From NCBI GenBank assembly GCA_045632205.1, contig JAZQWH010000192.1, forward strand, positions 361-64,360: a stretch of 64,000 nt of DNA, written 5' to 3'. A model generated the notes under the pieces. That model was given only the letters and a program-made list of their open reading frames with translations, was not told the origin of the DNA and did no database searches. Below are positions 8,564-50,617 of the stretch, piece after piece. Source of the DNA: Eubacteriales bacterium (GTDB lineage Bacteria; Bacillota; Clostridia; Oscillospirales; CAG-272). Position numbers and translations under genes: made by a program. Numbering within the stretch: position 1 is the stretch's first letter; each line of letters opens with the position of its first letter.

Positions 8564-8775
8564 CCCCGGCGAGAAGGTCAGATCAAAGCGGTTGGATAGA
8601 CAGCCGCTTTTTTCTCTTCTGCGTGAAAAAAGCTCAAACAATATGCAAAGAACGTGGATTGATGCTTCAAGATGTTGCAACTTTTTATCAAAACATTAGA
8701 CAAACAGGTTGCAAAACAAAAGAAAGTATGATATAATATAGAATATTCAAGCTTTAGCTTTTGCGAGGTGTAGAT

Positions 8776-9725: not shown

Positions 9726-9740
9726 AAGGAGTAAGCAAAA

Positions 9741-12443: not shown

Positions 12444-12459
12444 AAGGGAGAAAGAGAAT

Positions 12460-14820
12460 ATGGCAAAAAAGGGATACGATCCGCACAACAAGGTGAACTT
12501 CGACGCCAAGGTAAACGATCAAGGCAAGACGTTAAGAGACGAAATAAACGAGGCGATGGCGATTGGCAAGGAGGACAATGTAAATTACCGCAATCAGGTT
12601 GCTGAATTGCTGCAGGGAGAGGTTGAACAGGAGATGTTCAACTACGTACAGAGCATTGATAAATCGGGATACGCTGAGGTTCTCAATAACCAAGCTCTTA
12701 CCCGAGATATTATTTCCCTATTCCGGCAAGATGACGTATTCAACCGGATTCAGTCCGCCGATCAGGTACAGCGTCTTCAGAATATATTTACCGATCACCT
12801 TACCGTGAAGGCAAGAAGAGCGGAAATTATGGCAAAGGAGCAGGCAGGTCAGCAGATCACGGCAGAGGAAAGATCCGTCCTTGATCAAAAAACCTCCTTC
12901 GAGACCTATATGGATCGCGCAACCAAGAGCTACTTTGTGCAAAAGATCCTAGACGTTGAATATTATATCTCCCAAGCCAGAGATGATGCGCTGTTCACCA
13001 ATTATCATAAAAACGCCGATCAGATCAAAAAGTCGCTCAACAGAAACCTTGCTTTATACAGAAGCGGCGGAAGAGGAGGATTTGGCGTAAGCTTTAATTT
13101 CCATAAAAAGGACGTATCTCCGATTTTTTATGATAGCAAAGCACTTGATCAGTATGCAAGCTCTTTGATCGAAATAAGAGAAAAGTTCAAAACGCAAAGC
13201 TCGGTGCTTGCGGTGTACCGTGAAAGCGCCAAGAACCTTGAAACAGCGGGCGATAACTGGAAGGGCGCCGCAAGACACTATAAAATTATGACCGATGCGG
13301 AAGCCGTTGCGCATTTCAAGCGTCCTAAGGAAAAGATCTCTCAGTATGAGTACGATAAGGAAAACCTCAAGCGCTTGATCAATAAGAAGGATGATCTTCA
13401 CAAGCGTTATAACGTGGCGCTTGACCGCTTCCACAAGTTAGAGCAATACATCTACGATCATCCCGAGGTCAAGGACTATCTTGATTCGCCCGAGTATCTT
13501 GAGGTAATGAAGCTGGAGTATCACGAGGGTACGTATGAGGGCAAGTCCTTTTCGGAGATGACTTCCCTCGATCAGCAGAATTACGTCCTCGATAAATACG
13601 GATGTGCAGAGCTGAGAACGATCCCCAGAGAGCACAGAGAGGCTTATTCCCTGGCAAGAGATAAAAAGGCGCAGGAAGAGCTCCGTGATCTTGAGGATAA
13701 ATTTGAGAACGCAGAGCATAGGATCAAGATGTATTGGGGAGACCGTCCCGTAACTCCCGAAATGGAGATCCAAAAGCTGGAGCTGGAGGAAAACCGTGCG
13801 ATCATCGACGCGCTCCGCAATTGCGTAACCAAAAATTCTCCCGAGAACGAAGCAAAATACGTTGAGGCGGTCAAAACCGCATACGATAACGCAAAGCAAA
13901 GATACCTCGACAATCCGGAGCTCAGAGATCGTATGGATCTGAGAGCAAAGCAGCTTGATAAGGGCGATTTCTCATTTGTTCCGATCAGCAATCAACAAAT
14001 GGCGTTGTCGTTCGATATGTCCCCTATCTGGTCGGATGATACCACCAGATTTACCAAGGAGCAGAGGGAGGCGGCAAGAGCTGCACGTGAGAACAGTTTT
14101 CTTACGCGTTCCTATCTGGAGCGAGTCAAACCGCTTGTGCAGCCTCAATTCCAGATCCAGATCGAAAACGAAAGACAGGCAGCACGCGAATACACGCTCA
14201 AGCAAATGGCCCGCGGCTTGGATAAGGAAGACCTTGAGGCGTACAAGACCGACATCAATAACAGAAGGATGGAGAAGCTTGAATATACGAGAGACGAATT
14301 CAAGCTCAAGCTGGACGCGCTCAGTGAACAGAAGGACGCACTGAAAAAGCAGCACGGCTTCTTTACCAGAGTGTTCAGCAGCAAGTATAGGGTGTCCGCA
14401 AAGGAAATAGACCAAAAGATCGACGGTCTCCGCAAGGCATACAAGTCCGAGCAGGACAAGGCAAGATACGATATTCTCAAGACCTATCAGGAAAAAGGTC
14501 TTGCTATGACGAGATCGGAGGCAAACGAGCTTAAATCCCTTACCAAGGAAGCTACAAAAACGGGCGACCTGCAAAAGTGGGACAAGGAAAGAGCCGAGGA
14601 AAAGCGCAAGATCGAGGAGTACAACAGAACTTTCGGTGAGACGGAGATGGAAAAGCCGCAGGGAACCGAGAAAAATGTTCCTACTACGACCCAACTTGAT
14701 CTGGGGGCGCGGATCCACAATCACAAAACCGTGGAGCAGCCCATAAAGGAAGAGACGGTAAAGGAAAATACGATCGCAAAAGAGCAAAAGACCTTAGAAG
14801 AAAAGGACATCGAAATATAA
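12460..14820 (+). CDS. K/E-rich alpha-helical protein P2 (786 aa) with C-terminal QLDLGARIH module
   Basis: RBS aagggag precedes ATG 12460. No signal peptide or TM segment. The last ~200 aa are homologous to P3. Confidence 0.75.
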   Translation: MAKKGYDPHNKVNFDAKVNDQGKTLRDEINEAMAIGKEDNVNYRNQVAELLQGEVEQEMFNYVQSIDKSGYAEVLNNQALTRDIISLFRQDDVFNRIQSADQVQRLQNIFTDHLTVKARRAEIMAKEQAGQQITAEERSVLDQKTSFETYMDRATKSYFVQKILDVEYYISQARDDALFTNYHKNADQIKKSLNRNLALYRSGGRGGFGVSFNFHKKDVSPIFYDSKALDQYASSLIEIREKFKTQSSVLAVYRESAKNLETAGDNWKGAARHYKIMTDAEAVAHFKRPKEKISQYEYDKENLKRLINKKDDLHKRYNVALDRFHKLEQYIYDHPEVKDYLDSPEYLEVMKLEYHEGTYEGKSFSEMTSLDQQNYVLDKYGCAELRTIPREHREAYSLARDKKAQEELRDLEDKFENAEHRIKMYWGDRPVTPEMEIQKLELEENRAIIDALRNCVTKNSPENEAKYVEAVKTAYDNAKQRYLDNPELRDRMDLRAKQLDKGDFSFVPISNQQMALSFDMSPIWSDDTTRFTKEQREAARAARENSFLTRSYLERVKPLVQPQFQIQIENERQAAREYTLKQMARGLDKEDLEAYKTDINNRRMEKLEYTRDEFKLKLDALSEQKDALKKQHGFFTRVFSSKYRVSAKEIDQKIDGLRKAYKSEQDKARYDILKTYQEKGLAMTRSEANELKSLTKEATKTGDLQKWDKERAEEKRKIEEYNRTFGETEMEKPQGTEKNVPTTTQLDLGARIHNHKTVEQPIKEETVKENTIAKEQKTLEEKDIEI

Positions 14821-14875
14821 TATAGGTACAGCCTACAAAAATAATACAAAATATAAACGAAAGTGAGAAAAAACC

Positions 14876-15562
14876 ATGGCAAAGATAACAATTAAGGAAA
14901 AGCAATTTAAAATTAAGAATGGCGAATTCAACCTGGATCTGGCAGCATTCAAATTAGAAGGTGAAGATCTGAAGCAGTATAAATTAAGCATATACAGCCG
15001 CCGCGAAGCCGATTACCAGAATAAACTTGACGCGATTTCTGCAAGAGAAAACGAGTTCAAGGAAGAAAAGGAAGCTCTGAAAAAGAAATACGGATTTTTC
15101 GGCAGACTCTTTAACAAAAGATGCAGAGCCGAAATGAAAAGAATCAACCAGAATCTCAAAGAACTCCCGCAGTCCTATAAGCAGGCTAAAATGGAAACGC
15201 AATATTACGTGCTCAAGGAATTTCAGGATAAGGATCTTACCATGACCGCTAAGGAAAAGAAGGCTCTGGCTTCTATCGAAAAGGACATACATCCCTACAT
15301 AAAGGGTGAGTGGGATAGAAGACGTGAGAAAGAAAAGGAAGTCAATGAACGTGCGTCTCAGTCATACAAAACATACGATCAGTTAAAAAAAGAAAAAGAA
15401 GCCGAAAGGCTTGAGCGTACCAATGCTAAGAAGCAGCTGGACCTCGGAGATAAGATTCACAAGCCCGTGGAAAAGACAGAAACGGTCCGCGAGACTTCCG
15501 TAAAGGAAAAAGAGATCGAAAAGGAACAGAAGGTTCAAGAAGGCCCCGATCTCGAAAAATAA
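14876..15562 (+). CDS. K/E-rich alpha-helical protein P3 (228 aa) with C-terminal QLDLGDKIH module
   Basis: Aligns with the P2 C-terminus (ALKKxxGFFxRxF ... QLDLGxxIH). Confidence 0.7.
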   Translation: MAKITIKEKQFKIKNGEFNLDLAAFKLEGEDLKQYKLSIYSRREADYQNKLDAISARENEFKEEKEALKKKYGFFGRLFNKRCRAEMKRINQNLKELPQSYKQAKMETQYYVLKEFQDKDLTMTAKEKKALASIEKDIHPYIKGEWDRRREKEKEVNERASQSYKTYDQLKKEKEAERLERTNAKKQLDLGDKIHKPVEKTETVRETSVKEKEIEKEQKVQEGPDLEK

Positions 15563-15582: not shown

Positions 15583-18033
15583 ATGAAAAATAACAAAAAA
15601 TCAGAAGGAATAGGAGCAAAGCTGGCATCATTAGGGATCCGTGCGGGAATCGGACTTGCCATTTCCCTTGGATTGGCGCTTGTGGGCGTGATACTTGTCT
15701 GCGGCACGTTTGTATTTGAGCCGTGGATGATCGCATCACTGACAATATTTGTAATATCCTTGCTGTCGATCATATTATCCGACCTACTAGCTCTGTTATC
15801 TGCCGCATTGAATAAGGTTTTGATGACCGTATATTCATTTGCCATTGTGGGTGCTATCTTTTCTCTTTTAACTTACGCTATCATATCTTCGAAATTTAAT
15901 TTTGAGGATATGAATTGGCAAAGAATTTTCACAAGCTTTGCCGGTGACAAATTGTTTTATACCATCTTTGCTCTTTTCGCCATTACCCTTGTAGTAGGGT
16001 ATTACGGATTTGTAAACCGCGCTGAGATCGGGGACCTGATCGCAACGCTGACGGGTAACAAGGGTAAGCTCAATCAGATTGAGGCAAACCTTGAAAACTC
16101 CCGTTGGATGACCGACGCGGAAAGAGATAAGATATTCAACTCGTGCAGATACAGCGACCTTGAGGGTATGAAAAAGGACGGCGTACCGATCCGCGCGTTG
16201 TACGATGGCAAGAAGGATATGAAGATCACCTTCAATTCCCCCTGTCACGGACTGATCATCGGTAGTACGGGTTCGGGTAAAACGACCACCTTTATTAACC
16301 CGATGATCCAGCTTCTCGGCGCATCGGGCGCAGGCTCGTCTATGATCATGACCGACCCTAAGGGTGAGCTTTTCTCACTGCATTCAAAGTTCCTCAAGGA
16401 CAGAGGCTATGACGTAAAGGTGCTTGACCTTCGCGATGCTTACCACTCATACAGATGGAATCCCTTAGAGCCGCTTTGGGACGCTTATCAGGAATATCTC
16501 GGTGCGGAGCGCGCAGCTTTTCAGCACGAGAACGAAAACGTAGAGGAAAGCGGACTTACTCTCACAGCAAAGCCCGAGGAATACGGCGACGCTTGGTTTG
16601 AGTTTAAGGGGAAGGCGTACACCGATATGGAGCGCCTCGTAAAGGAAGTGAAGATCTTCCGCACACAGACCTTTGACGAGATGTACGAGGATATGAACGA
16701 CCTTGTAAGTGTTCTCGTTCCCGTTCAGAATCAGAACGATCCTATGTGGGAAAAGGGCGCAAGATCGATCACCATGGGCGTTCTTCTTGCAATGCTGGAA
16801 GATAGCGCCGATCCCAGGCTTGGAATGACAAAGGAAAAGTTCAATCTGTTCAACGCATCGAAAATATTACAGAATTCCAACGATGAATACCGTGAGCTTC
16901 GCGAGTATTTTCAAGGAAGAGATCCCTTGTCCAAGGCGGTGGCGGTTTCCAAGCAGGTGCTTGGCGCCCCCGACAAGACTCGTTCGTCCTATATGAGCGT
17001 TCTTCTTGAAAAGCTCTCGATATTCAACGATACGGGAATATGCGCGCTGACCAGCTCATCGGATTTCAAAACGTCCGATCTTGCAGAGCGTCCTACGGCG
17101 CTTTTCGTCAAGATACCCGACGAGAAGGATACGAGACACGGTCTGGCATCTATATTCCTCACCAACGTTTACAAATCGCTTATCAAGGTGGCATCGTCCT
17201 ATGAGGATCTATCGCTACCGAGAAACGTGTACTACATCCTCGACGAGTTCGGTAATATGCCGAAGATCGAAAAGTTTGATAAGATGATCACCGTCGGACG
17301 AAGCCGAAAGATCTGGTTCAACATGGTGGTGCAGTCCTACGTACAGCTCAACAACGTTTACGGAGATACCGTTGCCGACATCGTCAAGGGTAACTGCGGT
17401 ATCAAGATGTTTATCGGCTCCAACGACATGGGAACCTGTAAGGAATACAGTGAGCTTTGCGGAAACGTAACGGTGCTCACGAAATCCACGTCGGGCAACA
17501 AGAAGGGCGGAGACGTCAATGTCAGCGAAAGCATGCAGACCCGTCCGCTGATCTACCCGTCCGAGCTTCAAAAGCTTAATAACAAATTCTCTTCGGGCAA
17601 CTCCCTGGTGGTAACCTTCGGAAACTATCCGCTCAAAACACAGTTTACACCGAGCTATAAATCTCCTCTTTATCAAATGGGCAAGATGGATACCGACGAT
17701 ATTGAGGGCAGACTGTTTGAGGAAGAGGAAGTATTCTATAACATTGCACGTCGGAACAGATTTGTTTTGCGCCCCGATGAGATACTTCCTGAGGAGCTTG
17801 AAGAATTAGAAGAAGAAACGGTTGAACCTGAGGAAGAGACCGAAATCACCGAAGAGGAAAAAGCGGTTAAACTTGAGGAAGAGACCGAAATCACCGAAGA
17901 GGAAGAAACGGTTAAACTTGAGGAAGAAACCGATATCGCCGAAGAAAAGACGGTAGTGCTCGAAGATGAGACAGTATCTTTGGAGGAAGAAGAAAATTCT
18001 AATGAATCGGGAGGACAGAATGAAACAACATAA
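15583..18033 (+). CDS. VirD4/TraG-type type IV coupling protein (T4CP) with acidic repeat tail
   Basis: About 4 N-terminal TM segments, Walker A GSTGSGKTT, Walker B YYILDEFGNMP, and T4CP-typical GRSRKIWF..VQSY. The C-terminal ~90 aa are E/T-rich repeats. Confidence 0.85.
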   Translation: MKNNKKSEGIGAKLASLGIRAGIGLAISLGLALVGVILVCGTFVFEPWMIASLTIFVISLLSIILSDLLALLSAALNKVLMTVYSFAIVGAIFSLLTYAIISSKFNFEDMNWQRIFTSFAGDKLFYTIFALFAITLVVGYYGFVNRAEIGDLIATLTGNKGKLNQIEANLENSRWMTDAERDKIFNSCRYSDLEGMKKDGVPIRALYDGKKDMKITFNSPCHGLIIGSTGSGKTTTFINPMIQLLGASGAGSSMIMTDPKGELFSLHSKFLKDRGYDVKVLDLRDAYHSYRWNPLEPLWDAYQEYLGAERAAFQHENENVEESGLTLTAKPEEYGDAWFEFKGKAYTDMERLVKEVKIFRTQTFDEMYEDMNDLVSVLVPVQNQNDPMWEKGARSITMGVLLAMLEDSADPRLGMTKEKFNLFNASKILQNSNDEYRELREYFQGRDPLSKAVAVSKQVLGAPDKTRSSYMSVLLEKLSIFNDTGICALTSSSDFKTSDLAERPTALFVKIPDEKDTRHGLASIFLTNVYKSLIKVASSYEDLSLPRNVYYILDEFGNMPKIEKFDKMITVGRSRKIWFNMVVQSYVQLNNVYGDTVADIVKGNCGIKMFIGSNDMGTCKEYSELCGNVTVLTKSTSGNKKGGDVNVSESMQTRPLIYPSELQKLNNKFSSGNSLVVTFGNYPLKTQFTPSYKSPLYQMGKMDTDDIEGRLFEEEEVFYNIARRNRFVLRPDEILPEELEELEEETVEPEEETEITEEEKAVKLEEETEITEEEETVKLEEETDIAEEKTVVLEDETVSLEEEENSNESGGQNETT
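17830..17964 (+). repeat. 45-bp tandem repeat (about 3 units) encoding the acidic T4CP tail
   Basis: Units 17830-17874 and 17875-17919 are near-identical (gaggaagagaccgaaatcaccgaagagga..). Unit 17920-17964 has diverged. Confidence 0.85.
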
Positions 18034-21000
18034 AAACTTAATATGTAAGCGTATTTTGTCCTTTGTGATGGTTTTCGTCATGCTTGTTCCTTTTGCCGCG
18101 AGCGTATTTCCGTTAATCGCCTCGGCTGCCGAAGCCATAAATGAGGCAACCACCCCGACTGTCAGTCTTGCGTGGGATACGAGCACGGTTACTGTAACTG
18201 ACGGTGTGGCTACACCGTATAAGAACGCAAGCGCAACGGCAAGCTCATACACGATGAGCTATACCGTAACGGCAAGCGGTACGATCACCGCACCTGTTAC
18301 GGTAAGAGTACAGAGCTTTGATATCTCTGCTCAAGTCTCTGCCTATGGTATTCAAAGGGAATATGCGGGTGTTGATAACACCGTAACCTTGACGGCGCAA
18401 AATCCCACCGCTACGGGAACCGTGACGGTATACCGACATGAAGGCTATGCGACCAAGGTGACCGAAACGGGTGTGATCTATACCAAAGAATTTGGCTTGC
18501 GCATCACCGAGATCACCAATGCCAAAAAGCAGAGCGGCGCGGATACCCTCCGCGCACAGGTGCTTCCAAGGAACGGATATACGCTTGAAGTGTCCAAAAA
18601 CAGTCAGGGGCAGAATTACGGAGGCGGAACGGGTACTTTGCCAAATTCTTACGTGTATACCGATATGGCAAAGCAATATGCCTCCGGCACCATTTCTTAT
18701 ACGGTTGGCCATCAAGAGACCGTTACCGGTGTCATCGATCCGTATTCCGTACTGAAGGCGCAAAATTCTCGTTCCTTAAACGCTTTGCTTGGTGATTTCC
18801 ATTACGGCGTGGACGTTTATTTTAACGGTCAGTGCTATGTTACGTCAAAACAGAACGTAGCAGGTCAGCGGGCAGGCTTGACCTTTAAAATCTGGGAGTA
18901 CTTTGATGAACAAACCGGAACCCAGGTGGCGTATAACGATTACGGTGACAAGAACTACCGAGACGGATTTACCTTCAATTGGGACGTTGCACATGAGTTG
19001 ATTGCCGAGCAGGAAAACGCCACGGCTGCCGCTTATCATAGAGGAACTTCCTATGACGGCGACTATATCCGAGCGCGTTATTGGGATAGGAGTCTGTATA
19101 AATACAGCTTTTATAACAAGGAAGATGCGGCATGGAACAAATCCGAAAAGCCGGTGACGATGAAATACTCGGTCATTCTCGCGAACTCCCAAGATGTATC
19201 CGTTCGTTCCTATCATATAGAGGACAGGGCATACGGAGCGGGAGATACGGTGTATTTGACCATACTCTTTGACCGTCCTATGCAGATCGCACACAATGAT
19301 GCGCATCCGCTTCAAATTCAGGCAAAAATCGGAGATTCTACCGCAAACTATTTTACCTATTGCGGTGGTAATATGACCGATACCTTGATTTTTTCTATGG
19401 TATTACCTGAAGACCGTGAGATTTACGGAAGCAAAATTGAGCTTATAGGCTTTTCCAACGAGGATTACAACAACACGGTTGTCGATCTGTTCTGGAACAA
19501 GGCGAATAAGAACAATATGTGGAATCTCGAGGATTCCAAGGTGAAAGGACAAACGCTTGCCTGCACGGTAGACACCAGAACTCCCGACATTACTGTACAA
19601 AATATTGTAGGCAACTCCGGAACGGTAAAGTCGGCTTCGTTCAACGTAACCGTTGCCGATATCACGAACAAAGGTAAAATAGAGGTTGCGTGGACAAAGG
19701 AAGAAGCTCCGCCAACTGCATCGGATGCTTGGTCGAGTGTAACGTTTTCGGCAGACGGCGACGACAAAACCACTGTCAGCATAGAAAAGAAAGGCCTGAC
19801 GGGAGTGTATTACGCTCACATAAGAGTAACGAGCGTCTCCGGCAATCAAAGCTTCCAGACCGTCGGTCCGTTCTCCTTTGACAATCAATCGCCTACGATT
19901 TCCAACCTTCGTCTGACTAACGGTGATCACGCGCAAAAATACCTAAAGGAGCACACGTTACTTTTCAACATTTCCGACGTTTCGATCGGTGTGGACAAGG
20001 TATATATGAAGGCGCGACACACGGACGAGGACAAGGGGCTTGCAGGCGGAGTCGATGAGCTTCTTGTATATGACAGCGCCTCGCCGAGCAATCTGTTAAG
20101 CATTACGGGCGACACGGCGGAGATCAAAGTGCTGTCGTCAATGCTTGACCTTGCCGCAGATGCCTACGATGCGTATGTTATTGAATTTTACGCTGTTGAT
20201 AAGCTTGGAAATCAAAGCGATATTTATCAATTTGCAGATGCGTTGATGTTTGATAACCGAAACACCTTTGCCGCATCGCTCGATACCGCATCGGATATCT
20301 CTATAAAAGGAAAACAGATTTATTATAATGATAAAACACTGAAGTTTTCTCACTCGGAATCGGGTAGTAATACGTGGGTGATGGATTCTCTGAAATACAA
20401 CGGCGTTGACATCACCGACAAGCTTGACGAAAACGGAATCCGCGGAAGCGCTGACAATGGCAATAAGACGTATTATTTGACGCTGAACGAAAACGTTCAA
20501 GGATACATCGAGATCGTCTTCAAGCTCAACGGTGAGCGCGGATCTAACGTAATCAATTTTTACGTTACGAGCAAAGAGGTGAATTCGCCAAACTATCAAA
20601 AGCTCTATGCTCCCAACCGATTGCTGATCAATGAAGTATGGCAGCTTTCCACGGCTACCTTCTATTCGGGAAATAACCGAAGCGGAAGCTACTATGTGGG
20701 AACAAATCTCAAGCCGATCTTTTCCGGCAAGGATAAGGCGCTTGACTACGCAAAGTTCTTTGAAAAGCAGGATATCGTCATCGAGTATATCGACGACGAG
20801 GTTGAAAAAAACAATCTGGAGGGTGGCTGGATCAGTAATTACAGAAAAGCGGAATCCGATAAGGATAAGGTAGTAGCTGTAGGCCAAACGTGGCTTCGAT
20901 ATAAGAGCAATGCTTGGACGCTTGACTCAAACAACGAAGAGCATTGGGTATATTATTTTTACTCAAACGAAAGGGTAACGGCGATTGATCCGGTTCTGAC

Positions 21001-24000
21001 CCCTGCGTTGAATGCAGCGATCGACCGCAACGCAAAGCTGATCTGTAATTACAACGGCGATAACCGTATCTATCTGACGGCAAACAACACGTCAAAGGGG
21101 TATGTCAATTCTTATAGCGAGCCCTATTACGATGCCCGCGGAATCTTAACCGAAGCACTTTCTTATCAAGAAATTTACAGTTACGATATAACCATCTCGG
21201 CGGATAATAGCATCTATGATAGCTTCATTACCTACAACGAGCTGCAGATACCTCTTGTTGCGAACTACAAATTCAGTATTGACAGCTTACAGCACGGATT
21301 TGTATATTACAGACAACACGGCACGGAGGAATGGTTGCCGCTGGCAAACGGCGAGTCCTTCAAGGATAAGCTGAAGGCATCGGGATTGTACGAGATCTGC
21401 GAGTTTGGAAACGGATATATGACGTATCTCGTTTACGTGGATCTGGACGCTCCCGTAATATCCTATGATCTTACGGTGGACGGAGCAACCAAAGCGGGAT
21501 ATATCACGTCCGACACCTCGGGCGGAACGCTTCGAGCTTCTAAATTCACAGTAAAAGAGCTTTTGAACAGCGTTTCCGGCGGTCTTCCCGTAGAGCGCGA
21601 CAGATGGGCATATTTTTACATTCTTTATAGCTCTCTTGGCGGCGGTGAGCATGCGTTTATGACGATGACCGACCTCAACAGAGCCAAATACGAGCTAAGC
21701 ACGGGAATCTATAAAATATACGCCTGCGACCGTCTCGGTAATATGGTCGTGCAGACCATCAAGATCAACACCGAGGACATCAATGTTACGGGAAAGGTCA
21801 GCACATCGGGACTGACGGTCACGTCAAACCGAGCTCCTGCAGACATTATGCCGGGAACGTTTAAGGTATGGCGCGATAATATGCTTTTGTCTGACGAAAC
21901 CTACTCGCAGAGTATGACGTTCTCTCAAAGCGGAGTTTACCAAATTGAGTTTGAGGACGTTTACGGAAACTTCGTAAATGAGACCTTTACATTCAGACGT
22001 GATCTCCCCGTAGTCACTTTCTCGCGTGAAAAGAAAGAGGGAACTTCATTATATGAGACGATCACTGTAAATTCGGAAGACAAGAACAAGCTTTCAAGCG
22101 TTGTCAGCGAGGATAACCAGCTATTTACCGTCTCCACGTCGGCAAACATCAGGATATCTTATCCCGTAAGCAGCGGATATGCTTTTGAGTTTATAGGCGG
22201 TGAGCCTGAATACAAGAGCTCTATCCTTTCTACTACAAATATTGATATAAAAAGCACTTCAAAAAATTGGACGTTAAAGATCTTCTACAAAAACGATCCC
22301 GACGTATATATCCATGTTACCTGTATCGTGGACAAGGATGCACCTGTCATAAGCGGTTCGGTGCTTGCCAAGGAATATACGTATAACGACCAGACGGGCG
22401 CAAGAGATAACGTTCTGTTTACCCCCACAGGAAACACCGCAAGCAGTATCTTTTACAGCGGTGAGAGTGCCGTTGGAGACAGCGCAGTGATCTCTTGGAC
22501 AGACGAAACCAGGGTCGCAAGTATCTCGTATTCCTTCAACGGCGGTGAAAAGATCACCGTGAATCCTTCTGTCGGAAGCCTGACGCTTCCCGAAAACGGA
22601 AATTACGTATTTGAGGCAGAGGACCTTTTCGGAAACAAGTCTACTTTTGCGTTTACATTGACCGATCATATTGATTTCAATCTTATGATCGGTGGCAAGG
22701 AACAAACGGTCGACTATGAGTCCGAAAAATATATCGACGGAAACAGATATACGCAAACACTCTATGTGGGTAAGGAAACACAGCTCATCTTAAAGGAAAA
22801 TGCTCTTCTGGCATTGTACTATACGGATGGCAGCAAGAGCTTCCTCTATAACCTTGAATATGAGGTAAAGGACGGGAAGGCAGCTCTGCTCATTTATGCC
22901 TTTGATGCAGCAACCGGAGAGTCTATCGTTATCGAAAACGGAGAGATCGACTTGGCGTCAAGCGGAAAGATCTTTGACGGAGATATCGTTATCAACTATA
23001 CGTATCAAAACGGTGTTCTGACGTTGATCCTTCCAAAATGCGAAAAAACGTATGAGCTGTGGCAGCTTCGCATTTCCGATTTTACCGGTCACAGCCCCGT
23101 GGTCGTTCAGATCGAACGGTCTGACAAGGTTTCCGAAATGGAAATTTCCCGCGAGGACGGTACGAAGCTGGATCTCTCCTATAACGGCTTTGTAGGAAGC
23201 AATCAAAAGCTGACCTTGGAAAGCTCTTCCATATCCGAGGATACCGTCGAAATCGTCGCGTATTACTCCGCAACCTATACGGAGAGCTTTGCGAACGCAG
23301 AAAAAATCGTTCTCTACGGTCAGGGAGCAATATCTTCTCTCGAAAAGGAAGGATATTACAAGATCCTTGCTACCAACAAATACGGAAATGAACGAGTAAT
23401 CTACGTTGCGCTAAGCTTTAAACTCTCGCTTGACGTACATATTGAGTACGACAAGATAGACAACCGCACACAAACGCTGAATATCCCCGATACATATTCG
23501 ATCTTCTCCAACAAATCAGTGAATATCGTCATATGGGATACAAGAGCAACCGTTGTTTGCTTAAAGAACGGTGTGGCGTTTGACGTTGAGATAACAGAAG
23601 AAAACGGATATCTTGGATTTTCCTTGACGGAGGTTGGAGAATACACCGTTACGGTAAGTGACGAGAGCGGAAACGTATATATTCTTTCCGTATCGATCAA
23701 AGAACCCGAAACGCTTACGTACGACGGATTCCTTACGGGATTTAACGAAAATGCATTAAAGAGGGAAGAGAATTATACCAACGGAGCATTAAGTCTTGAT
23801 AAGGCAAGGATTGAAGCGAACGGCATCAAATACGTTGCGTTCCGCAAGGTTGGTACAAATGAATTTGCGGTGCTCTACGATCTGATCAACGTAATCCCAA
23901 CGGAATACAGTGAAGCTACCTTTAACGGTAGTATCGGAAAAGAGGACGGAGAGTATGAGGTATGGTTCTGCGATGCCTACGGAAACCTGCACGTAGAGAC

Positions 24001-25342
24001 CGTAAGGATATCCCGAAAGCCCTTGCTCTCAATCAACCGTCAAACGCAGGACGCAACAAAACCGTCGGCATACGATTTTGAGTTTGCCCTGCAAAACGGC
24101 GCGTGGTCGAATTACGAATTGACCTTTATCAACACCTCGGAAAAATATTTGCTGATGATTGACGGAGCAATAGCAAGCTTCACAAACGGCAAGTACACCT
24201 TCACCCTTCCCTCAAATCTTGGGGGGGCAGAGCAATCTTACGTTCTCTGCTACGTTGACGATTACGGAAACAGCTATGAGATCAGGATTCATCTCTACCG
24301 TTACGTTCCCGAATCATTCGTTGCGGAAAATGCGGATACTGTTACACATGGTGGCACGTTATTTGTAAAGAGTGATTTCTCAATGACGTGGGGGGATCGG
24401 ATCACCGCAACCTATTCCTTGAACGGCGATTCCGCAATCCCATTCGATCAATCCACGGTATTTACCGAGGACGGCGAATACACCCTTGTGTTCACCGACT
24501 ATGCGGGAAATACCTCCACGCGTATTATGGTAAAGGATTCCAGGGTGCTATATGATATGGCAAGCGACGGATTCGTTCTGTATAATGGCGCTGTGGTTTC
24601 CTCAAAGGTCTCCCTTTCCCCCGACGAGGAGCTTACCTTTACCGCCACAAGGAACGGTGAAGCATACGTCACCGAAACGAGAAGCTTCACGGAGGACGGA
24701 CACTACGTCGTAACGCTTACCGACCGCATTGGAAACGTATCGTATTTTGAATTTACCATATACTCCAAGGCAAAGCAGAGCTTTACGTTTACCGTTCCCG
24801 ACGGATATTCCTTCTCGCAGATCTGGTACATCACGGACGGACACAGAGTGTCGCTGGTAAGTAATGTGGTCTTGAATGAAAACGGTTCTCAAAGCTATAC
24901 CTTCTCTACCGACGGAGTATATGAGATCGAGCTGCTTCATACGGCAAGCAATCAGATCTGTTATTTTACGCTTAACGTAGACAACGTTCCGCCCGAGGCC
25001 TTGCTTGTCGGCGCGGAAAACGGAAGCGTAACAAGAAACAACGTAACCCTTGAAGGATTGAAAAACGGAGATATGATCTACGTTTATAAAAACGGGGCGC
25101 TTGTTTCGACGTATATCGTTGAGGGTAATTCCGAGACTGTTCTTGAGTTGCTCAGCAACGGTGATTTCGGAAGCTACTCCGTGGTCATTCAGGATGAAGC
25201 CGGAAACTCGGTAACACACGAATTTACCAAGGAGTTCGCTACCAATACCTTTTCCAATATCTTTATCTGCTTGCTCCTCGTATCATTCGGGGCAATCGGT
25301 ATCATTTACATCCGTTTCAACGGCAAAGTCCGAACAAAATAA
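18020..25342 (+). CDS. Giant surface protein (2441 aa) with signal peptide, repeated Ig-like-type modules and a C-terminal TM anchor
   Basis: RBS gggagga precedes ATG 18020, which overlaps the T4CP stop. N-terminal signal-like sequence FVMVFVMLVPFAASVFPLIASAAEA. At least 11 strict GxYxhxxxDxxGN motifs. C-terminal FICLLLVSFGAIGIIYIRFNGKVRTK with no LPXTG. Confidence 0.8.
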   Translation: MKQHKNLICKRILSFVMVFVMLVPFAASVFPLIASAAEAINEATTPTVSLAWDTSTVTVTDGVATPYKNASATASSYTMSYTVTASGTITAPVTVRVQSFDISAQVSAYGIQREYAGVDNTVTLTAQNPTATGTVTVYRHEGYATKVTETGVIYTKEFGLRITEITNAKKQSGADTLRAQVLPRNGYTLEVSKNSQGQNYGGGTGTLPNSYVYTDMAKQYASGTISYTVGHQETVTGVIDPYSVLKAQNSRSLNALLGDFHYGVDVYFNGQCYVTSKQNVAGQRAGLTFKIWEYFDEQTGTQVAYNDYGDKNYRDGFTFNWDVAHELIAEQENATAAAYHRGTSYDGDYIRARYWDRSLYKYSFYNKEDAAWNKSEKPVTMKYSVILANSQDVSVRSYHIEDRAYGAGDTVYLTILFDRPMQIAHNDAHPLQIQAKIGDSTANYFTYCGGNMTDTLIFSMVLPEDREIYGSKIELIGFSNEDYNNTVVDLFWNKANKNNMWNLEDSKVKGQTLACTVDTRTPDITVQNIVGNSGTVKSASFNVTVADITNKGKIEVAWTKEEAPPTASDAWSSVTFSADGDDKTTVSIEKKGLTGVYYAHIRVTSVSGNQSFQTVGPFSFDNQSPTISNLRLTNGDHAQKYLKEHTLLFNISDVSIGVDKVYMKARHTDEDKGLAGGVDELLVYDSASPSNLLSITGDTAEIKVLSSMLDLAADAYDAYVIEFYAVDKLGNQSDIYQFADALMFDNRNTFAASLDTASDISIKGKQIYYNDKTLKFSHSESGSNTWVMDSLKYNGVDITDKLDENGIRGSADNGNKTYYLTLNENVQGYIEIVFKLNGERGSNVINFYVTSKEVNSPNYQKLYAPNRLLINEVWQLSTATFYSGNNRSGSYYVGTNLKPIFSGKDKALDYAKFFEKQDIVIEYIDDEVEKNNLEGGWISNYRKAESDKDKVVAVGQTWLRYKSNAWTLDSNNEEHWVYYFYSNERVTAIDPVLTPALNAAIDRNAKLICNYNGDNRIYLTANNTSKGYVNSYSEPYYDARGILTEALSYQEIYSYDITISADNSIYDSFITYNELQIPLVANYKFSIDSLQHGFVYYRQHGTEEWLPLANGESFKDKLKASGLYEICEFGNGYMTYLVYVDLDAPVISYDLTVDGATKAGYITSDTSGGTLRASKFTVKELLNSVSGGLPVERDRWAYFYILYSSLGGGEHAFMTMTDLNRAKYELSTGIYKIYACDRLGNMVVQTIKINTEDINVTGKVSTSGLTVTSNRAPADIMPGTFKVWRDNMLLSDETYSQSMTFSQSGVYQIEFEDVYGNFVNETFTFRRDLPVVTFSREKKEGTSLYETITVNSEDKNKLSSVVSEDNQLFTVSTSANIRISYPVSSGYAFEFIGGEPEYKSSILSTTNIDIKSTSKNWTLKIFYKNDPDVYIHVTCIVDKDAPVISGSVLAKEYTYNDQTGARDNVLFTPTGNTASSIFYSGESAVGDSAVISWTDETRVASISYSFNGGEKITVNPSVGSLTLPENGNYVFEAEDLFGNKSTFAFTLTDHIDFNLMIGGKEQTVDYESEKYIDGNRYTQTLYVGKETQLILKENALLALYYTDGSKSFLYNLEYEVKDGKAALLIYAFDAATGESIVIENGEIDLASSGKIFDGDIVINYTYQNGVLTLILPKCEKTYELWQLRISDFTGHSPVVVQIERSDKVSEMEISREDGTKLDLSYNGFVGSNQKLTLESSSISEDTVEIVAYYSATYTESFANAEKIVLYGQGAISSLEKEGYYKILATNKYGNERVIYVALSFKLSLDVHIEYDKIDNRTQTLNIPDTYSIFSNKSVNIVIWDTRATVVCLKNGVAFDVEITEENGYLGFSLTEVGEYTVTVSDESGNVYILSVSIKEPETLTYDGFLTGFNENALKREENYTNGALSLDKARIEANGIKYVAFRKVGTNEFAVLYDLINVIPTEYSEATFNGSIGKEDGEYEVWFCDAYGNLHVETVRISRKPLLSINRQTQDATKPSAYDFEFALQNGAWSNYELTFINTSEKYLLMIDGAIASFTNGKYTFTLPSNLGGAEQSYVLCYVDDYGNSYEIRIHLYRYVPESFVAENADTVTHGGTLFVKSDFSMTWGDRITATYSLNGDSAIPFDQSTVFTEDGEYTLVFTDYAGNTSTRIMVKDSRVLYDMASDGFVLYNGAVVSSKVSLSPDEELTFTATRNGEAYVTETRSFTEDGHYVVTLTDRIGNVSYFEFTIYSKAKQSFTFTVPDGYSFSQIWYITDGHRVSLVSNVVLNENGSQSYTFSTDGVYEIELLHTASNQICYFTLNVDNVPPEALLVGAENGSVTRNNVTLEGLKNGDMIYVYKNGALVSTYIVEGNSETVLELLSNGDFGSYSVVIQDEAGNSVTHEFTKEFATNTFSNIFICLLLVSFGAIGIIYIRFNGKVRTK

Positions 25343-25374: not shown

Positions 25375-25683
25375 ATGAAAAACTTGATTTACGCACTGGC
25401 AATCGATGAGGTACAAGCAAATGAAATGGTCAGCCCTGTCATGGAGCTGATTCAGGTATTTATTCCCGTTATTCTCACGCTCGTGGCAACCGTAGGCTTT
25501 ATCTGGTGTATCGTTCTCGGCGTAAAGTTCGCAAAGTCCACAGATCCCCAGGAGCATCAGCAGGCAAAGAAGTCCTTGATCAATGCCATTATCGGTTTTG
25601 TTCTGATCTTCGTTTTAATGCTGGTTCTTCACATCGCGTTCCCCTATTTCCTTGAAATGGTCAAGGGTGTATCTAAGTTCTGA
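25375..25683 (+). CDS. Small two-TM membrane protein, VirB2/TrbC-like topology (tentative)
   Basis: 102 aa, RBS aaggag. Two hydrophobic helices separated by a charged loop (KFAKSTDPQEHQQAKK). Confidence 0.5.
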   Translation: MKNLIYALAIDEVQANEMVSPVMELIQVFIPVILTLVATVGFIWCIVLGVKFAKSTDPQEHQQAKKSLINAIIGFVLIFVLMLVLHIAFPYFLEMVKGVSKF

Positions 25684-26452: not shown

Positions 26453-27967
26453 ATGTTTAATTGGTTTTGGGAATTTTTATACGGACTGATCAAGGTTCCG
26501 CTGTTTTGCATCGATATTATCATTATGATCGCTCGCAAGCTGTGTGGTATTGATCCCGTTCAGATAGAAAAGGAAGTAAACGGTGAGATCGTTACGGAGG
26601 ACGTGGATCTTTTGACCTACTTTATGCAGGGCGAAACGATACTGAACGCCTTTGGTTACGTCTGCCTGTTCGGTTTTATTCTTCTGTTTCTGTTTACGGC
26701 ATTTCGAATTACACGGGATCAATTGACCTTTTACGAGAAAAAATCCCCCATTCGTATTTGCCTTGACTCCGCAAAGATCATTCTTTTCTTTTTACTTGTT
26801 CCGGCTATCATGATCGCGTCATCGGTATTCGTGTCCACGATCATGCGCGGAATATATGAGGCGACCGCCAACGGAAATAGCGGACTTGGAGGCTCTATGT
26901 TCACAATCTTCGCAAACGAAGCATACATAGGTCCGTCCGAGGACAAGAAAGCGGTGCTTGATGCCTTCAGAAGCTGTTCTCTTGAGGAGTATTTAACAGG
27001 TGTCAGTGAGTTTTCTTACTATAACACAGACAAGGTCGCCGATTTCTTCAAATTGAGTAAATTCAATTTCTTTTTGGGTCTCGTCGGATCTATCTCCGTG
27101 CTGATCCTTCTTGCGCTGACGTTACTTTCCTTTGTGGAGAGAGTTATCAGCCTCATTTTGTTGTTTGTCATTGCGCCGCTTCCCATAAGTGCATCCCCAC
27201 TTGACGACGGCGAACGCTTCAAAATGTGGCGAGAGCAGACAATCAACAAATTTATCACAGCATACGGCGGTATCCTCGCATTAAACATTTTTTCCTTAAT
27301 GCTTCCAATGATCGCAAATATCAATTTCTTTTCGGTTGGAGGAACAGGCGATAATCTTGTCAATGGAATTGCAAGATTGCTGTTCATCATAGGCGGAGCC
27401 TTCGCTTGCAGACGCGGAATGGTGCTGATAGGCAACCTTGTATCCCGCGGTGCGGGCTCGCAGGACCTTATGGACCAGAGTCATTTGACGGGCGGTATGG
27501 CGGCTCTCGCTCATATGGCAGGCGGAGTGATAAAAGGTGCTTTTGGCACAGTTACAGGCGCTGCAAAGGGCACCTTCAACAAGGGAAGATCTTGGCTGCA
27601 GGCTGCAGACGTTCCCACCAGCATTGCTGAGGGAATAAGAAAGCATACGCAGATGAAAAAAGAGCACGATGCCGAGGAGAGAAGAAATGCTGCAAACCGT
27701 TTTGACGGCAAAGTAGACCGTGGTGGCGCTCAGGGCGGTGCAAATTTACAGGCAGCAATGCAAGGAAAGACGGACGGTGGCTCTGCAAAGAATGTCCCCG
27801 ACAAGCCCGCCGCTGCACCTAATGCCGCAAAATCTCCCGCAAACAACGATAAGAATTCAGAAATGAATAAGAATGCGCAGACCGACATTAAGAATGCGCT
27901 TCAAAACAAAAAATCAGACGATGCTAACACAAAAGCAGACGATAACAAAGACAACACAACAAAGTGA
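26453..27967 (+). CDS. Polytopic membrane protein, VirB6/TrbL-like (tentative), with disordered C-terminal tail
   Basis: 504 aa, RBS aaggag, about 7-8 TM segments. The last ~130 aa are A/G/K/N/D-rich. It sits between the VirB2-like and VirB4-like genes. Confidence 0.55.
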   Translation: MFNWFWEFLYGLIKVPLFCIDIIIMIARKLCGIDPVQIEKEVNGEIVTEDVDLLTYFMQGETILNAFGYVCLFGFILLFLFTAFRITRDQLTFYEKKSPIRICLDSAKIILFFLLVPAIMIASSVFVSTIMRGIYEATANGNSGLGGSMFTIFANEAYIGPSEDKKAVLDAFRSCSLEEYLTGVSEFSYYNTDKVADFFKLSKFNFFLGLVGSISVLILLALTLLSFVERVISLILLFVIAPLPISASPLDDGERFKMWREQTINKFITAYGGILALNIFSLMLPMIANINFFSVGGTGDNLVNGIARLLFIIGGAFACRRGMVLIGNLVSRGAGSQDLMDQSHLTGGMAALAHMAGGVIKGAFGTVTGAAKGTFNKGRSWLQAADVPTSIAEGIRKHTQMKKEHDAEERRNAANRFDGKVDRGGAQGGANLQAAMQGKTDGGSAKNVPDKPAAAPNAAKSPANNDKNSEMNKNAQTDIKNALQNKKSDDANTKADDNKDNTTK

Positions 27968-48753: not shown

Positions 48754-48777
48754 TATCCCCGAAAGGAGACCGTGTTT

Positions 48778-50574: not shown

Positions 50575-50583
50575 CAAAAAAGA

Positions 50584-50610: not shown

Positions 50611-50617
50611 TGATTGA

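Follow-up and report, generated by a model that had tools for sequence, protein, structure and literature searches.

A giant protein of about 2,400 residues, a predicted tail-anchored surface fibre, forms a fixed part of a compact, minimal Mycoplasma-like type IV secretion system (T4SS) in walled, uncultured gut Clostridia, as judged from sequence comparisons, and it represents a putative new and unannotated family within the known theme of T4SS adhesins. Its gene was studied in the window, by which we mean the whole stretch of 64,000 nucleotides that was analysed, and the features of the locus are collected in Table 1. We consider it probable that the protein is a dedicated Sec-exported, tail-anchored fibre which gives this chromosomal T4SS its target specificity. 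Gram-positive T4SSs are thought to depend on adhesins that sortase anchors through LPXTG, and nearly all of the known systems serve conjugation. Whether dedicated non-conjugative T4SSs exist in monoderms has been described as a long-standing open question (PMC12857230), and the known T4SS functions in Firmicutes would be widened if the system described here is non-conjugative.

Table 1: Features of the T4SS locus, with positions counted from the first letter of the window.
Feature	Position	Strand	Basis or remark
Regulatory unit: Cro/C1 HTH protein, LytTR response regulator, GHKL (AgrC-like) histidine kinase	8761..11006	+	Pfam
Three K/E-rich cytoplasmic proteins (419, 798, 228 aa), operon head	11184..15562	+	common C-terminal QLDLGxxIH motif
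Type IV coupling protein (T4CP), VirD4/TraG-like	15583..18033	+	Pfam T4SS-DNA_transf 6e-53, TraG-D_C 8e-30, TrwB_AAD_bind 3e-23
Shine-Dalgarno sequence GGGAGGA of the giant gene	18009..18015	+	in the 3' end of the T4CP gene, 4 nt before ATG 18020
Giant gene	18020..25342	+	stop-free ORF, 2,440 aa plus stop
Predicted Sec signal peptide, aa 1-36 (...LIASA then AEA)	18020..18127	+	hydropathy; also in family members; putative cleavage site
Conserved N-terminal beta-sandwich region, aa about 40-204	18137..18631	+	61-75% conservation (40-aa windows)
Hypervariable tip cassette, aa 205-400	18632..19219	+	identity 35-43%
Beta-sandwich modules, aa 401-829	19220..20506	+	mostly strands in AF2 model of N-half; degenerate motifs at aa 605 and 727
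Conserved central domain, aa 830-1145	20507..21454	+	82-87% conservation in near family
Stalk, about 14 beta-sandwich modules, aa 1146-2405	21455..25234	+	holds 8 strict G-x-Y-x-h-x3-D-x2-G-N motifs
Juxtamembrane motif EFATNTFSN, TM helix and basic tail RFNGKVRTK	25235..25339	+	hydropathy; 93% conserved
Pilin-like two-TM protein (PF18895 T4SS_pilin; Mbov_0395 family)	25375..25683	+	Pfam 43.9 bits vs 26.6; NCBIfam 55.4 vs 40
Conserved T4SS-module protein, 247 aa	25698..26441	+	syntenic in relatives
VirB6-like polytopic membrane protein (MMCAP2_0566 / Mbov_0396)	26453..27967	+	NCBIfam 136 bits vs 90; 102.9 vs 70
VirB4 ATPase, Mollicutes-ICE type (Mbov_0397)	27985..30636	+	NCBIfam VirB4_plasma 615.9 bits vs 590

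The giant open reading frame proposed in the first-pass annotation reads through without stops, and its ATG with the ribosome-binding site GGGAGGA could be confirmed directly in the sequence, where both lie within the end of the T4CP gene. As the TAA of the T4CP gene occupies 18031-18033, the two genes overlap by 14 nt. A longer reading frame starting at ATG 17966 was rejected, since the related locus L001 has a stop just 5' and both L001 and L002 use the same ribosome-binding site and ATG, with GGAGAA/GGGAGGA preceding the equivalent start. The distance from the T4CP stop to the giant start is -14 nt in the window and in L010, -8 in L008, -4 in L011, -1 in L001 and L005, +9 in L007 and +46 in L012, and the overlap of stop and start is retained in five of the seven loci having gene calls. 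Translation of the giant gene would accordingly seem to be coupled to that of the T4CP gene, and because of the overlap both proteins are probably made together. A promoter and terminator scan found the plus strand from 11184 to 27900 to be without a strong terminator. The gene itself is free of long DNA repeats, as had been noted before: a repeat search of the gene found no tandem array, and the longest direct repeats measure 20-25 nt at 69-81% identity.

Both ends of the protein agree with the earlier description of a signal-peptide-like N-terminus, a C-terminal hydrophobic helix with a basic tail and the absence of a sorting motif. The N-terminus consists of a basic n-region and a 22-residue hydrophobic core followed by ASA and AE at the putative cleavage site, and no lipobox cysteine is present in this segment (...PLIASA, then AEA). 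Hydropathy shows one second hydrophobic stretch (aa 2408-2435), which is followed by RFNGKVRTK, and no further ones. No LPXTG-like motif was found near the C-terminus of the window protein or of about 45 relatives, and essentially all full-length family members end in the same tripartite arrangement of motif, TM helix and basic tail, which is conserved more strongly than any other part of the protein. Regarding the strand-turn motif G-x-Y-x-h-x(3)-D-x(2)-G-N, at least 11 strict and 2 degenerate copies had been claimed. The total of about 13 holds, but the split does not, as we count 8 strict copies (aa 1229, 1305, 1527, 1873, 1977, 2152, 2227 and 2384) and about 5 degenerate ones; shuffled versions of the protein contain on average 0.002 strict matches (2,000 shuffles). 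A profile HMM made from the 8 strict modules detected a further pair at i-E<0.005 (aa 519-621 and 1712-1804) as well as a borderline pair (aa 2040-2096 and 2261-2315), and an additional degenerate copy, at aa 727, was spotted by eye.

With respect to known families, the giant protein has no match above threshold in Pfam, NCBIfam or PHROGs, solely Ig-like ones below it. The best scores stay below the curated cut-offs for Big_13 (PF19077, 14.8 bits vs 27), BiPBP_C (PF06832, 18.7 vs 26.8) and OmpL47 (23.5 vs 40), all of these matches coincide with motif sites, and a Pfam scan at E<=1 returned just weak Big_13, BiPBP_C and Myco_19_kDa matches. One weak Big_13 match (aa 575-621) falls into the region aa 401-829 together with the module at aa 519-621. 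In the relative P0019 BiPBP_C reaches 32.0 bits, which exceeds the cut-off of 26.8, and distant relatives show sub-threshold Calx-beta matches at the position equivalent to aa about 40-204. A phmmer search with the whole protein against PDB sequences gave no relevant match. The AF2 models consist almost entirely of beta-strands (mean pLDDT 56.8 and 68.5, the latter for the C-terminal half) and show, at moderate confidence, tandem beta-sandwich modules, while the central domain is modelled at a pLDDT below 50. Using Foldseek against PDB and BFVD the models match multi-Ig, FN3 and MG (macroglobulin) domain chains at a probability of 1.00. The top match is the neck of the grappling-hook protein GhpA from Aureispira (9flp_A, E 6e-20), and others are 9flw_A, the ice-binding adhesin stalk 4p99_A, SbsC, complement MG arrays and phage FN3 and tip-attachment proteins. 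The almost all-beta models and these matches thus support the earlier term 'fibre'. As only such generic chains were returned, no fold could be assigned to the tip cassette or to the central domain; neither matched a known binding domain in Pfam, and for the central domain a profile search against PDB sequences and a Pfam scan of 16 central-domain sequences gave no match either. Likewise, Pfam recognised no binding or enzymatic domain in eight full-length relatives spanning other cassette classes.

GhpA and the Marinomonas ice-binding adhesin stalk are, like the giant protein, long chains of beta-sandwiches, and they reach out to catch a cell or surface, but the likeness is at fold level only (8-11% identity) and both differ in secretion and anchoring and have no link to a T4SS.

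To define the family we compared 16 full-length close homologues (60-92% identity) and about 45 distant cluster representatives, mostly of 2.1-2.7 kaa, which were collected by an exhaustive HMMER search. Only this search made the superfamily visible, as a word-indexed search restricted to the central region gave two fragments only. The central domain aligns throughout the superfamily and carries the signatures PIFSSxxKAxEYAxFMExQD, GQTWIRYKSxxW and WVYYFY. The window protein possesses all three, together with the signal peptide and the terminal xxN-x-A-x-S/T motif, TM helix and basic tail, and its gene is located between those of the T4CP and the PF18895 pilin-like protein. Both the C-terminal anchor and the conserved central domain can serve as new signatures for locating such systems in metagenomes.

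The conservation is interrupted by the tip cassette, which shows 35-43% identity vs about 70-87% elsewhere in the protein. Compared with the window protein, the relative P0004 is 20-29% identical in the cassette and about 74-97%, mostly 80-95%, in the next 100-aa windows, and P0005 shows the opposite pattern. At least four allele classes of the cassette could be distinguished, which are discordant with the backbone tree. Thus, the backbone of P0004 is 85% and its cassette 22% identical to the window protein, whereas at 73-76% identity this cassette resembles those of P0008, P0009 and P0013, the backbones of which are 64-68% identical to P0004. These alignments show a cassette (aa 205-400) that has been swapped between lineages, and such an exchangeable tip offers a concrete and testable handle on partner specificity. 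Discrete cassette classes that persist across diverged backbones are also typical of recognition loci under balancing selection, and the protein could be a determinant of self/non-self recognition or exclusion, the tip of which reads the allele of neighbours and permits or blocks engagement of the T4SS, in the sense of kin discrimination or surface exclusion as opposed to general adhesion. The position of the operon behind an Agr-like LytTR/GHKL pair, suggesting control by cell density, would fit this explanation as well. The exclusion proteins known so far, for example PrgA and TraT/TraS, are small in contrast to the giant protein, and the observations fit homotypic and heterotypic binding alike. 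We regard such a role as quite unlikely; it would be a special case of contact mediation and is compatible with it.

The claim that the giant protein belongs to the machine is strongly supported by its genomic context, as it occupies the same slot in every relative examined. The order T4CP, giant, pilin-like, a protein of about 250 aa, VirB6-like and VirB4 is found in L001, L002, L005-L008 and L010-L012. Among L007-L033 the T4CP gene lies 5' of the giant gene in all 21 contigs reaching far enough, and the pilin-like gene lies 3' of it in 21 of the 21 contigs that extend to this side. In these loci the giant proteins are only 22-34% identical to that of the window, compared to 41-70% for the T4CP and 47-71% for VirB4, and by this measure the giant protein evolves fast relative to the T4SS ATPases. 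Giant Ig-repeat proteins are common as bacterial surface adhesins, the structural matches include 4p99 and SbsC, and the family sources are all gut or faecal metagenomes, with relatives located in Clostridia MAGs. It is nevertheless very improbable that the protein merely shares the T4SS operon, without a part in secretion, and serves general colonisation by adhering to host mucus, plant fibre or other surfaces, given the constant position and strand at such low identity and the overlap of the giant start with the T4CP stop. Furthermore, the loci examined contained no family member away from such a T4SS module, and the plasmid and phage collections contain no homologue (tblastn with the central region).

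The surrounding T4SS can be assigned to the Mollicutes-ICE (MICE) family, as its VirB4 (Mbov_0397), VirB6-like (Mbov_0396) and pilin-like (Mbov_0395) proteins all score above the NCBIfam cut-offs, and the nearest plasmid relatives of the VirB4 are from Spiroplasma and Mycoplasma (about 27%). The 247-aa protein encoded between the pilin-like and VirB6-like proteins has no match in Pfam, NCBIfam, PHROG or PDB. The MICE backbone genes, namely the DDE transposase (CDS22) and the ParA-like CDSG, could not be found within the module or next to it. Among the ORFs scanned in the 64-kb window none belongs to a recognisable relaxase, integrase or transposase family, and the same holds for the surroundings of the giant gene, up to a distance of 10 kb, in L005, L007, L010 and L012. 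The module is flanked by housekeeping genes, and a low-GC block of about 6-33 kb adjoins a tRNA-Pro gene; the search for an att-type repeat of this tRNA on the far side of the block gave a chance 14-mer only and no flanking repeat. The 'mating-pair formation' in the conjugative sense suggested by the first-pass annotation is therefore not established for this minimal Mollicutes-ICE-type T4SS without a recognisable relaxase. A minus-strand ORF at 46135..50880 (1,581 aa) was dismissed as spurious, because it lies on the strand opposite alaS and a flavodiiron gene and matches no family. A plasmid of Clostridium estertheticum encoding a distant VirB4 was also set aside, as it carries an ordinary Firmicute module with a glucosaminidase and without the giant gene.

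The host is not a wall-less Mollicute, as the window encodes SpoVAD (sporulation) and an SH3/GW wall-binding protein, and neither a wall hydrolase nor a VirB8-like protein was recognised in the module with Pfam and NCBIfam. The giant protein might therefore span the wall structurally, instead of or besides acting as an adhesin. Taken to its end, this leads to a structural envelope-spanning scaffold, a stalk or sheath which bears the channel or the pilin-like protein through the peptidoglycan, or shields it there, and replaces the missing VirB8-like and VirB1-like parts with no target binding at all. The anchor and the central domain being the best-conserved parts of the protein, and the invariable location of its gene beside those of the T4CP and the pilin-like protein, would both fit a scaffold, but a lineage-hopping cassette with 20-40% identity among otherwise 85%-identical alleles is not expected of a purely structural part, the protein evolves far faster than the ATPases, and about 2,400 aa of Ig domains arranged as beads on a string far exceed the thickness of the wall. 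We thus consider the scaffold unlikely.

A comparison with known systems shows a close counterpart in Spiroplasma, where a plasmid encodes a protein annotated as 'adhesin' (WP_215825433.1), which we take to be of the ScARP/SARP1 type. It occupies the same slot directly 5' of the pilin-like gene, followed by VirB6-like and VirB4 (Mbov_0395/0396/0397), and like the giant protein it starts with a signal peptide, continues with an ectodomain and is anchored by one C-terminal TM helix that is followed by a cytoplasmic tail. The Spiroplasma protein also carries one GKYVVELLDNLGH strand-turn motif. The similarity (BLASTP E 0.005, module HMM E 5e-4) covers about 50 residues around this motif in a single sequence. 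The Spiroplasma adhesin is smaller (702 aa vs 2,440) and without the central domain, its T4CP gene follows VirB4 instead of preceding the adhesin, and in contrast to the window it belongs to a plasmid replicon in a wall-less host. The giant protein is not one of the PrgB-type adhesins named in the first-pass annotation, as Pfam and motif searches show it to be unlike PrgB and the related LPXTG adhesins of Gram-positive conjugative elements in sequence, domains and anchoring. PrgB, the aggregation substance of Enterococcus pCF10, is also a T4SS-encoded surface protein with an Ig-like stalk and a distal binding domain that promotes contact between donor and target (PMC12857230), but it carries an LPXTG sortase anchor and a polymer-adhesin (GbpC/AgI-II-like) domain. 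The giant protein has neither, is twice the size and membrane-anchored, and its gene stands between that of the T4CP and those of the channel in a module that lacks a relaxase.

In the ICE of Mycoplasma agalactiae and Mycoplasma bovis, which uses the same VirB4, VirB6 and pilin-like families, the surface lipoprotein CDS14 is essential for transfer and thought to start the contact between donor and recipient (PMC6030558). CDS14 differs from the giant protein in its N-terminal lipid anchor and in its gene position downstream of CDS19 and not beside the T4CP, and no sequence similarity between the two was detected. The T4SSs of Patescibacteria (Saccharibacteria) resemble that of the window in being monoderm and chromosomal, in their PF18895 VirB2-like pilins and in the lack of a relaxase in most clusters, and co-option for a lifestyle of cell contact without conjugation has been proposed for them (PMC12102498, PMC12857230). 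Unlike the window module they retain VirB1-like and VirB8-like parts (PMC12857230), no adhesins were detected with them, and they rely on type IV pili (PMC12102498).

For our preferred reading, a fibre providing target specificity, we propose the following model. The giant gene would share an operon transcript with the genes of the T4SS machine, and its product would be exported by Sec with subsequent removal of the signal peptide. The single C-terminal helix would hold the protein in the cytoplasmic membrane with the short basic tail inside the cell, and the juxtamembrane, TM and tail segment probably docks the fibre beside the pilin-like and VirB6-like channel proteins. The stalk, with about 20-23 Ig/FN3-like modules and the conserved central domain, could measure tens of nanometres and project through the wall. 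In such a type I topology the N-terminus would be the end farthest from the cell, and the 200-residue hypervariable cassette located there may bind a structure on the target-cell surface and so set which cells the T4SS can engage. It is this topology, together with the exchange of the N-terminal cassette, that suggests a role in contact and adhesion, and surface exposure, binding and docking to the channel are predicted along with it. Gram-positive T4SSs use surface adhesins in place of pili (PMC12857230), a theme into which such a fibre would fit.

The three K/E-rich proteins encoded at the head of the operon have no family match in Pfam, NCBIfam or PHROGs, and a homologue search with the first of them (11184) returned unnamed relatives only. 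They are candidate substrates or accessory factors. It could also be possible, though we put this forward only tentatively and consider it rather doubtful, that the module is a non-conjugative, chromosomal, quorum-regulated and contact-dependent T4SS which delivers proteins or other material to neighbours, with the QLDLGxxIH proteins as cargo and the giant protein as a long-reach 'grappling' fibre, the exchangeable tip of which defines partner classes. If true, Gram-positive bacteria would have a counterpart of effector-translocating or interbacterial T4SSs, equipped with a targeting arm of a new type. The regulatory unit upstream is closed by a strong terminator at 11037-11065, and its response regulator and histidine kinase are kept upstream in L001, L002 and L005.

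Translation showed that the giant gene stays open over 2,440 codons, and its ATG lies 14 nt inside the preceding gene for the T4CP, behind the ribosome-binding site GGGAGGA at 18009–18015, as the first-pass annotation had described. An upstream ATG at 17966 was rejected as start because relatives do not use it: the related locus L001 has a stop just upstream, and L001 and L002 start at the same RBS and ATG. In five of the seven loci with gene calls the giant gene starts before the T4CP gene has ended, and in the other two the genes are 9 and 46 nt apart, an arrangement that fits but does not prove a translational coupling of T4CP and giant. According to hydropathy the protein has a Sec-type N-terminus (basic n-region, long hydrophobic core, ASA|AE) and a second and last hydrophobic segment at aa 2408–2435, followed by the positive-inside tail RFNGKVRTK. 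An LPXTG-like motif was not found near the C-terminus in a motif scan, so both ends are as previously read: signal peptide-like in front, and a membrane helix with a basic tail but without LPXTG at the end.

Features of the T4SS locus and its borders (window positions)
Feature	Position	Strand	Assignment and remarks
Regulatory unit	8761-11065	+	Cro/C1 HTH, LytTR response regulator, GHKL (AgrC-like) kinase; promoter-like site 8709-8737; strong terminator 11037-11065
K/E-rich ORF	11184-12443	+	Just upstream of T4CP; apparently cytoplasmic
K/E-rich ORF	12424-14820	+	Just upstream of T4CP; apparently cytoplasmic
K/E-rich ORF	14876-15562	+	Just upstream of T4CP; apparently cytoplasmic
T4CP	15583-18033	+	T4SS-DNA_transf 6e-53, TraG-D_C, TrwB_AAD_bind; directly upstream of giant; stop TAA 18031-18033
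Giant gene	18020-25342	+	
Pilin-like, 102 aa, two TM			Downstream of giant; PF18895 T4SS_pilin; NCBIfam Mbov_0395
247-aa protein			Downstream of giant, after pilin-like gene; family not assigned
VirB6-like polytopic protein			Downstream of 247-aa gene; Mbov_0396 / MMCAP2_0566
VirB4			Downstream of VirB6-like gene; VirB4_plasma (Mollicutes equivalog model), 615.9 bits vs threshold 590
MATE-transporter fragment, truncated	30908-31481		After VirB4
tRNA-Pro	32544-32619	-	Borders low-GC block, 3' end facing block

The motif G-x-Y-x-h-x3-D-x2-G-N had been counted as 11 strict and two degenerate copies; the total of about 13 holds, but the split is eight to five. The literal pattern gave eight copies (aa 1229, 1305, 1527, 1873, 1977, 2152, 2227 and 2384; mean in 2,000 shuffled sequences 0.002), an HMM built from these strict modules added two (aa 519–621 and 1712–1804, i-E<0.005) plus two borderline ones, and inspection by eye added another, degenerate one at aa 727. 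As a repeat scan found no direct DNA repeats >25 nt within the gene, the modules are old and diverged, in line with the earlier reading. Three family-database scans assigned no curated family at threshold to the protein. Weak matches to Big_13, BiPBP_C and OmpL47 coincide exactly with the motif sites and thus identify the motif as the F–G strand-turn signature of bacterial Ig-like domains; BiPBP_C exceeds its cut-off in the relative P0019.

Two segments were modelled with AlphaFold2 from a 17-sequence alignment. Residues 51–1250 (mean pLDDT 56.8) are mostly beta, with some helices at about 850–1095 where pLDDT is <50, and residues 1251–2405 (mean pLDDT 68.5) are all-beta with strands in groups of 7–8. 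In Foldseek searches of the PDB the C-terminal half matched best to GhpA, the grappling-hook protein of Aureispira, in its neck (E 6e-20), ahead of numerous multi-Ig/FN3 ectodomains. The N-terminal half matched arrays of macroglobulin domains (complement C3, TEP1), the tail tip of lambda, GhpA and the ice-adhesin stalk 4p99; the hits in BFVD were FN3 chains and tip-attachment proteins. The chain of Ig-like modules anticipated by the first-pass annotation is therefore also seen in the models, and from the strand grouping, not from a parsed model, we estimate 20–23 beta-sandwich modules and one non-Ig domain.

An exhaustive HMMER search with residues 51–1250 against 1.84 billion representatives gave 71 proteins at E≤1e-3, about 45 of them with 2.1–2.7 kaa and 25–35% identity and a few with 3.5–5.4 kaa. 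All named members are annotated as 'hypothetical protein', and no giant homologues were found in plasmid and phage collections. A signal-like N-terminal segment is present in essentially all full-length members, and all of these end with (F/Y/H)xxN-x-A/P-x-S/T/N, a TM helix and a basic tail (RGKxRxK or YRNxSKxD), none carrying LPXTG. The central domain (aa 830–1145) can be aligned over the whole set, shows the signatures PIFSSxxKAxEYAxFMExQD, GQTWIRYKSxxW and WVYYFY, and has no match in Pfam or among PDB sequences. Four homologues, P0034 (5,403 aa, locus L009) and P0041, P0042 and P0044 (3.5–4.2 kaa), are far longer with the C-terminal anchor kept; in the first three central-domain matches cover >1,700 residues, suggesting a duplicated core. 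A T4CP fragment also precedes P0034.

The near family comprises 16 full-length homologues with 60–92% identity, all from metagenomes or MAGs. Their identity to the window protein is 35–43% over aa 200–400, 82–87% over aa 841–1040 and 1121–1240 and 93% over the last 40 residues, so that central domain and anchor are conserved and aa 205–400 form a hypervariable cassette. Pairwise matrices separate at least four cassette classes (A: window protein, P0001–3, P0005; B: P0006–7; C: P0004, P0008, P0009, P0013, P0015; D: P0010–12, P0014), which cut across the backbone relationships. P0004 shares 20–29% with the window protein in aa 201–400 and about 74–97% (mostly 80–95%) in the windows after the cassette, while P0005 shares 84–88% in the cassette and 61–88% (mostly 70–85%) elsewhere. 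Such a pattern would be expected of a specificity-determining module exchanged by recombination. Since the cleaved signal peptide and the C-terminal anchor put the N-terminal end farthest from the cell, the cassette lies at or near the tip. Of the tip domain envisaged within aa 1–500 we thus find an exchangeable cassette at about aa 200–400, and no known family above threshold.

The gene order is kept in Ca. Scatosoma (L001/L005) and in an Eubacteriales MAG (L002), with flanks that differ but are housekeeping, and is identical in the distant loci L007, L008 and L010–L012 (giant 25–33% identical), where flanking genes include moaA/moaC/moeA, rplM/rpsI/nrdR and chromate transporter genes and no relaxase or integrase Pfam matches occur within 10 kb. 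A metagenome scan using the central-domain alignment gave 21 additional loci. Within L007–L033 the T4CP gene lies immediately upstream on the same strand in 21/21 contigs reaching far enough, the pilin-like gene follows immediately downstream in 21/21, and the VirB6-like and VirB4 genes come next wherever sequence exists. Identity to the window proteins is 41–70% for T4CP, 47–71% for VirB4, 44–57% for the pilin-like protein and 22–34% for the giant. As the neighbours are constant while the giant is the least identical, it appears to be an obligatory but fast-evolving part of its T4SS type among the loci found by the central-domain search. Its proposed membership in the machine is thereby strongly supported, and a general adhesin merely hitch-hiking in a T4SS operon becomes unlikely because of this synteny.

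The giant would be a type I membrane protein standing on the cell beside the channel, spanning the wall and projecting tens of nanometres; Ig-like modules are about 4 nm long, and some 20 of them would make a fibre of 80–100 nm. Its cassette would bind a variable surface structure of the target cell and bring this cell to the secretion channel. For the central domain, which is conserved and rich in aromatic residues, the ligand may be an invariant one, be it a polymer of the wall, a partner subunit or a further copy of the same protein. A kin-recognition or exclusion role would be a variant of this contact mediation. As main alternative the giant would be a structural part that spans the wall and makes up for missing VirB8/VirB1 parts. 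The ORF scan across the window revealed no recognisable VirB1-like hydrolase, VirB8-like protein, relaxase, integrase or transposase. The reading as contact-mediating fibre or adhesin is supported at the level sequence analysis allows.

Reviews describe Gram-positive T4SSs as having no pili and employing LPXTG-anchored adhesins in their place, among them PrgB, which has a polymer-adhesin domain (PMC12857230). Because both of these defining features are missing, the window protein does not belong to the PrgB family, although it may perform the same job. The window machine is most closely related to the minimal systems of Mollicutes (CDS5, CDS15, CDS16, CDS17), which have no VirB1 and VirB8 and cannot transfer without the surface lipoprotein CDS14 (PMC6030558; PMC12857230); the nearest plasmid VirB4s come from Spiroplasma and Mycoplasma (~27% identity). 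Unlike the window protein, CDS14 is lipid-anchored at the N-terminus and encoded at a different place in the element. By position, the nearest analogue found is a 702-aa 'adhesin' (code 4) of the Spiroplasma plasmid NZ_CP065192.1 (L034, 4435–6543), directly upstream of Mbov_0395/0396/0397 genes, with a signal peptide, a C-terminal TM helix plus tail and one GKYVVELLDNLGH motif. It resembles the giant in sequence at the motif level only and may connect the plasmid adhesins of Mollicutes with the giant fibres in evolution. In a second Spiroplasma plasmid a 555-aa hypothetical gene lies farther upstream of Mbov_0396/0397 genes, with several small ORFs between. Patescibacteria possess chromosomal relaxase-less T4SSs with PF18895 pilins, in which an adhesin was not detected (PMC12102498). 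From these comparisons the giant represents a new family in an already known role, distinct by its membrane tail-anchor in place of LPXTG, its size, its novel conserved domain and its modular tip, and as far as the literature examined shows, a T4SS of this type has not been described before in walled Clostridia.

The most interesting point of the locus is the purpose of the machine. Since no relaxase or integrase was recognised, the flanks are housekeeping, an Agr-like pair lies upstream and three K/E-rich proteins with a common C-terminal motif are encoded next to the T4CP, there is room for a non-conjugative, contact-dependent function. The regulatory genes, a unit of their own directly before the T4SS operon, suggest control of the T4SS by peptide or cell density; their response regulator and GHKL kinase are retained in L001, L002 and L005, and genes resembling AgrB or AgrD were not recognised. 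The K/E-rich proteins match no family and all carry QLDLG[DA][RK]IH some 40 residues before their C-terminal end, with QLDLSAQMH, QLDISDKLY and SVDLSKDLH in the orthologues of L001 and L008. ORF 14876 is paralogous to the last 210 aa of ORF 12424 (35% identity, E 1e-26), which itself is ~31% identical between loci whose ATPases match at 87–91%. These proteins may be T4SS substrates that bear a signal for secretion or for binding to the T4CP; alternatively they may be accessory proteins of a relaxosome-like kind. As the next strong terminator after 11065 follows only beyond 27900, 11184–30636 is probably one operon.

The remaining window genes are housekeeping (alaS, glmM-like, CCA-adding enzyme, ECF transporter, SpoVAD, SH3/GW wall protein), and the host is therefore a Clostridium-class organism that has a wall and probably forms spores; the MAGs with related loci (Ca. 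Scatosoma, Eubacteriales, Clostridia) were obtained from faeces and yak caecum. As in wall-less Mollicute systems, neither VirB1 nor VirB8 could be recognised in the T4SS module, yet its host has a wall (44495–45634 region; SpoVAD, SH3/GW). It sits in a low-GC block at ~6000–33000 (mostly 0.40–0.49 vs 0.52–0.58 beyond 33 kb), which is only suggestive of an island; neither a flanking repeat nor an att-like tRNA-Pro repeat was found at the far side. A 1,581-aa ORF at 46135–50880 (minus strand) was dismissed as spurious in a GC-rich region, being antisense to alaS (46120–48753) and a flavodiiron/rubredoxin gene (48772–50574) with no family match.

A 45-nt tandem repeat at 17808–17945 (plus strand, 3.1 copies, 89% matches) codes for an acidic E/T-rich C-terminal extension of the T4CP, which has 816 aa in the window; the T4CP of L001 lacks this extension and has 734 aa. 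The distant loci (regions L007 4333–7449, L010 4591–7197 and L011 139–5331) lack the K/E-rich proteins. There, the gene just upstream of T4CP in L007 and L011 encodes a lipoprotein-like secreted protein with signal peptide and Cys, and L010 has such a gene parted from T4CP by a 98-aa ORF; further upstream L011 has a 1,081-aa protein with Big_2 and a transglutaminase core. Two extra genes (~520 and ~660 aa, no assigned family) follow VirB4 in L007 and L010. In L014 a tblastn match to the pilin-like protein covers ~700 nt (11847–12541), suggesting two possible tandem pilin-like genes, which would recall the pilin arrays of Patescibacteria.
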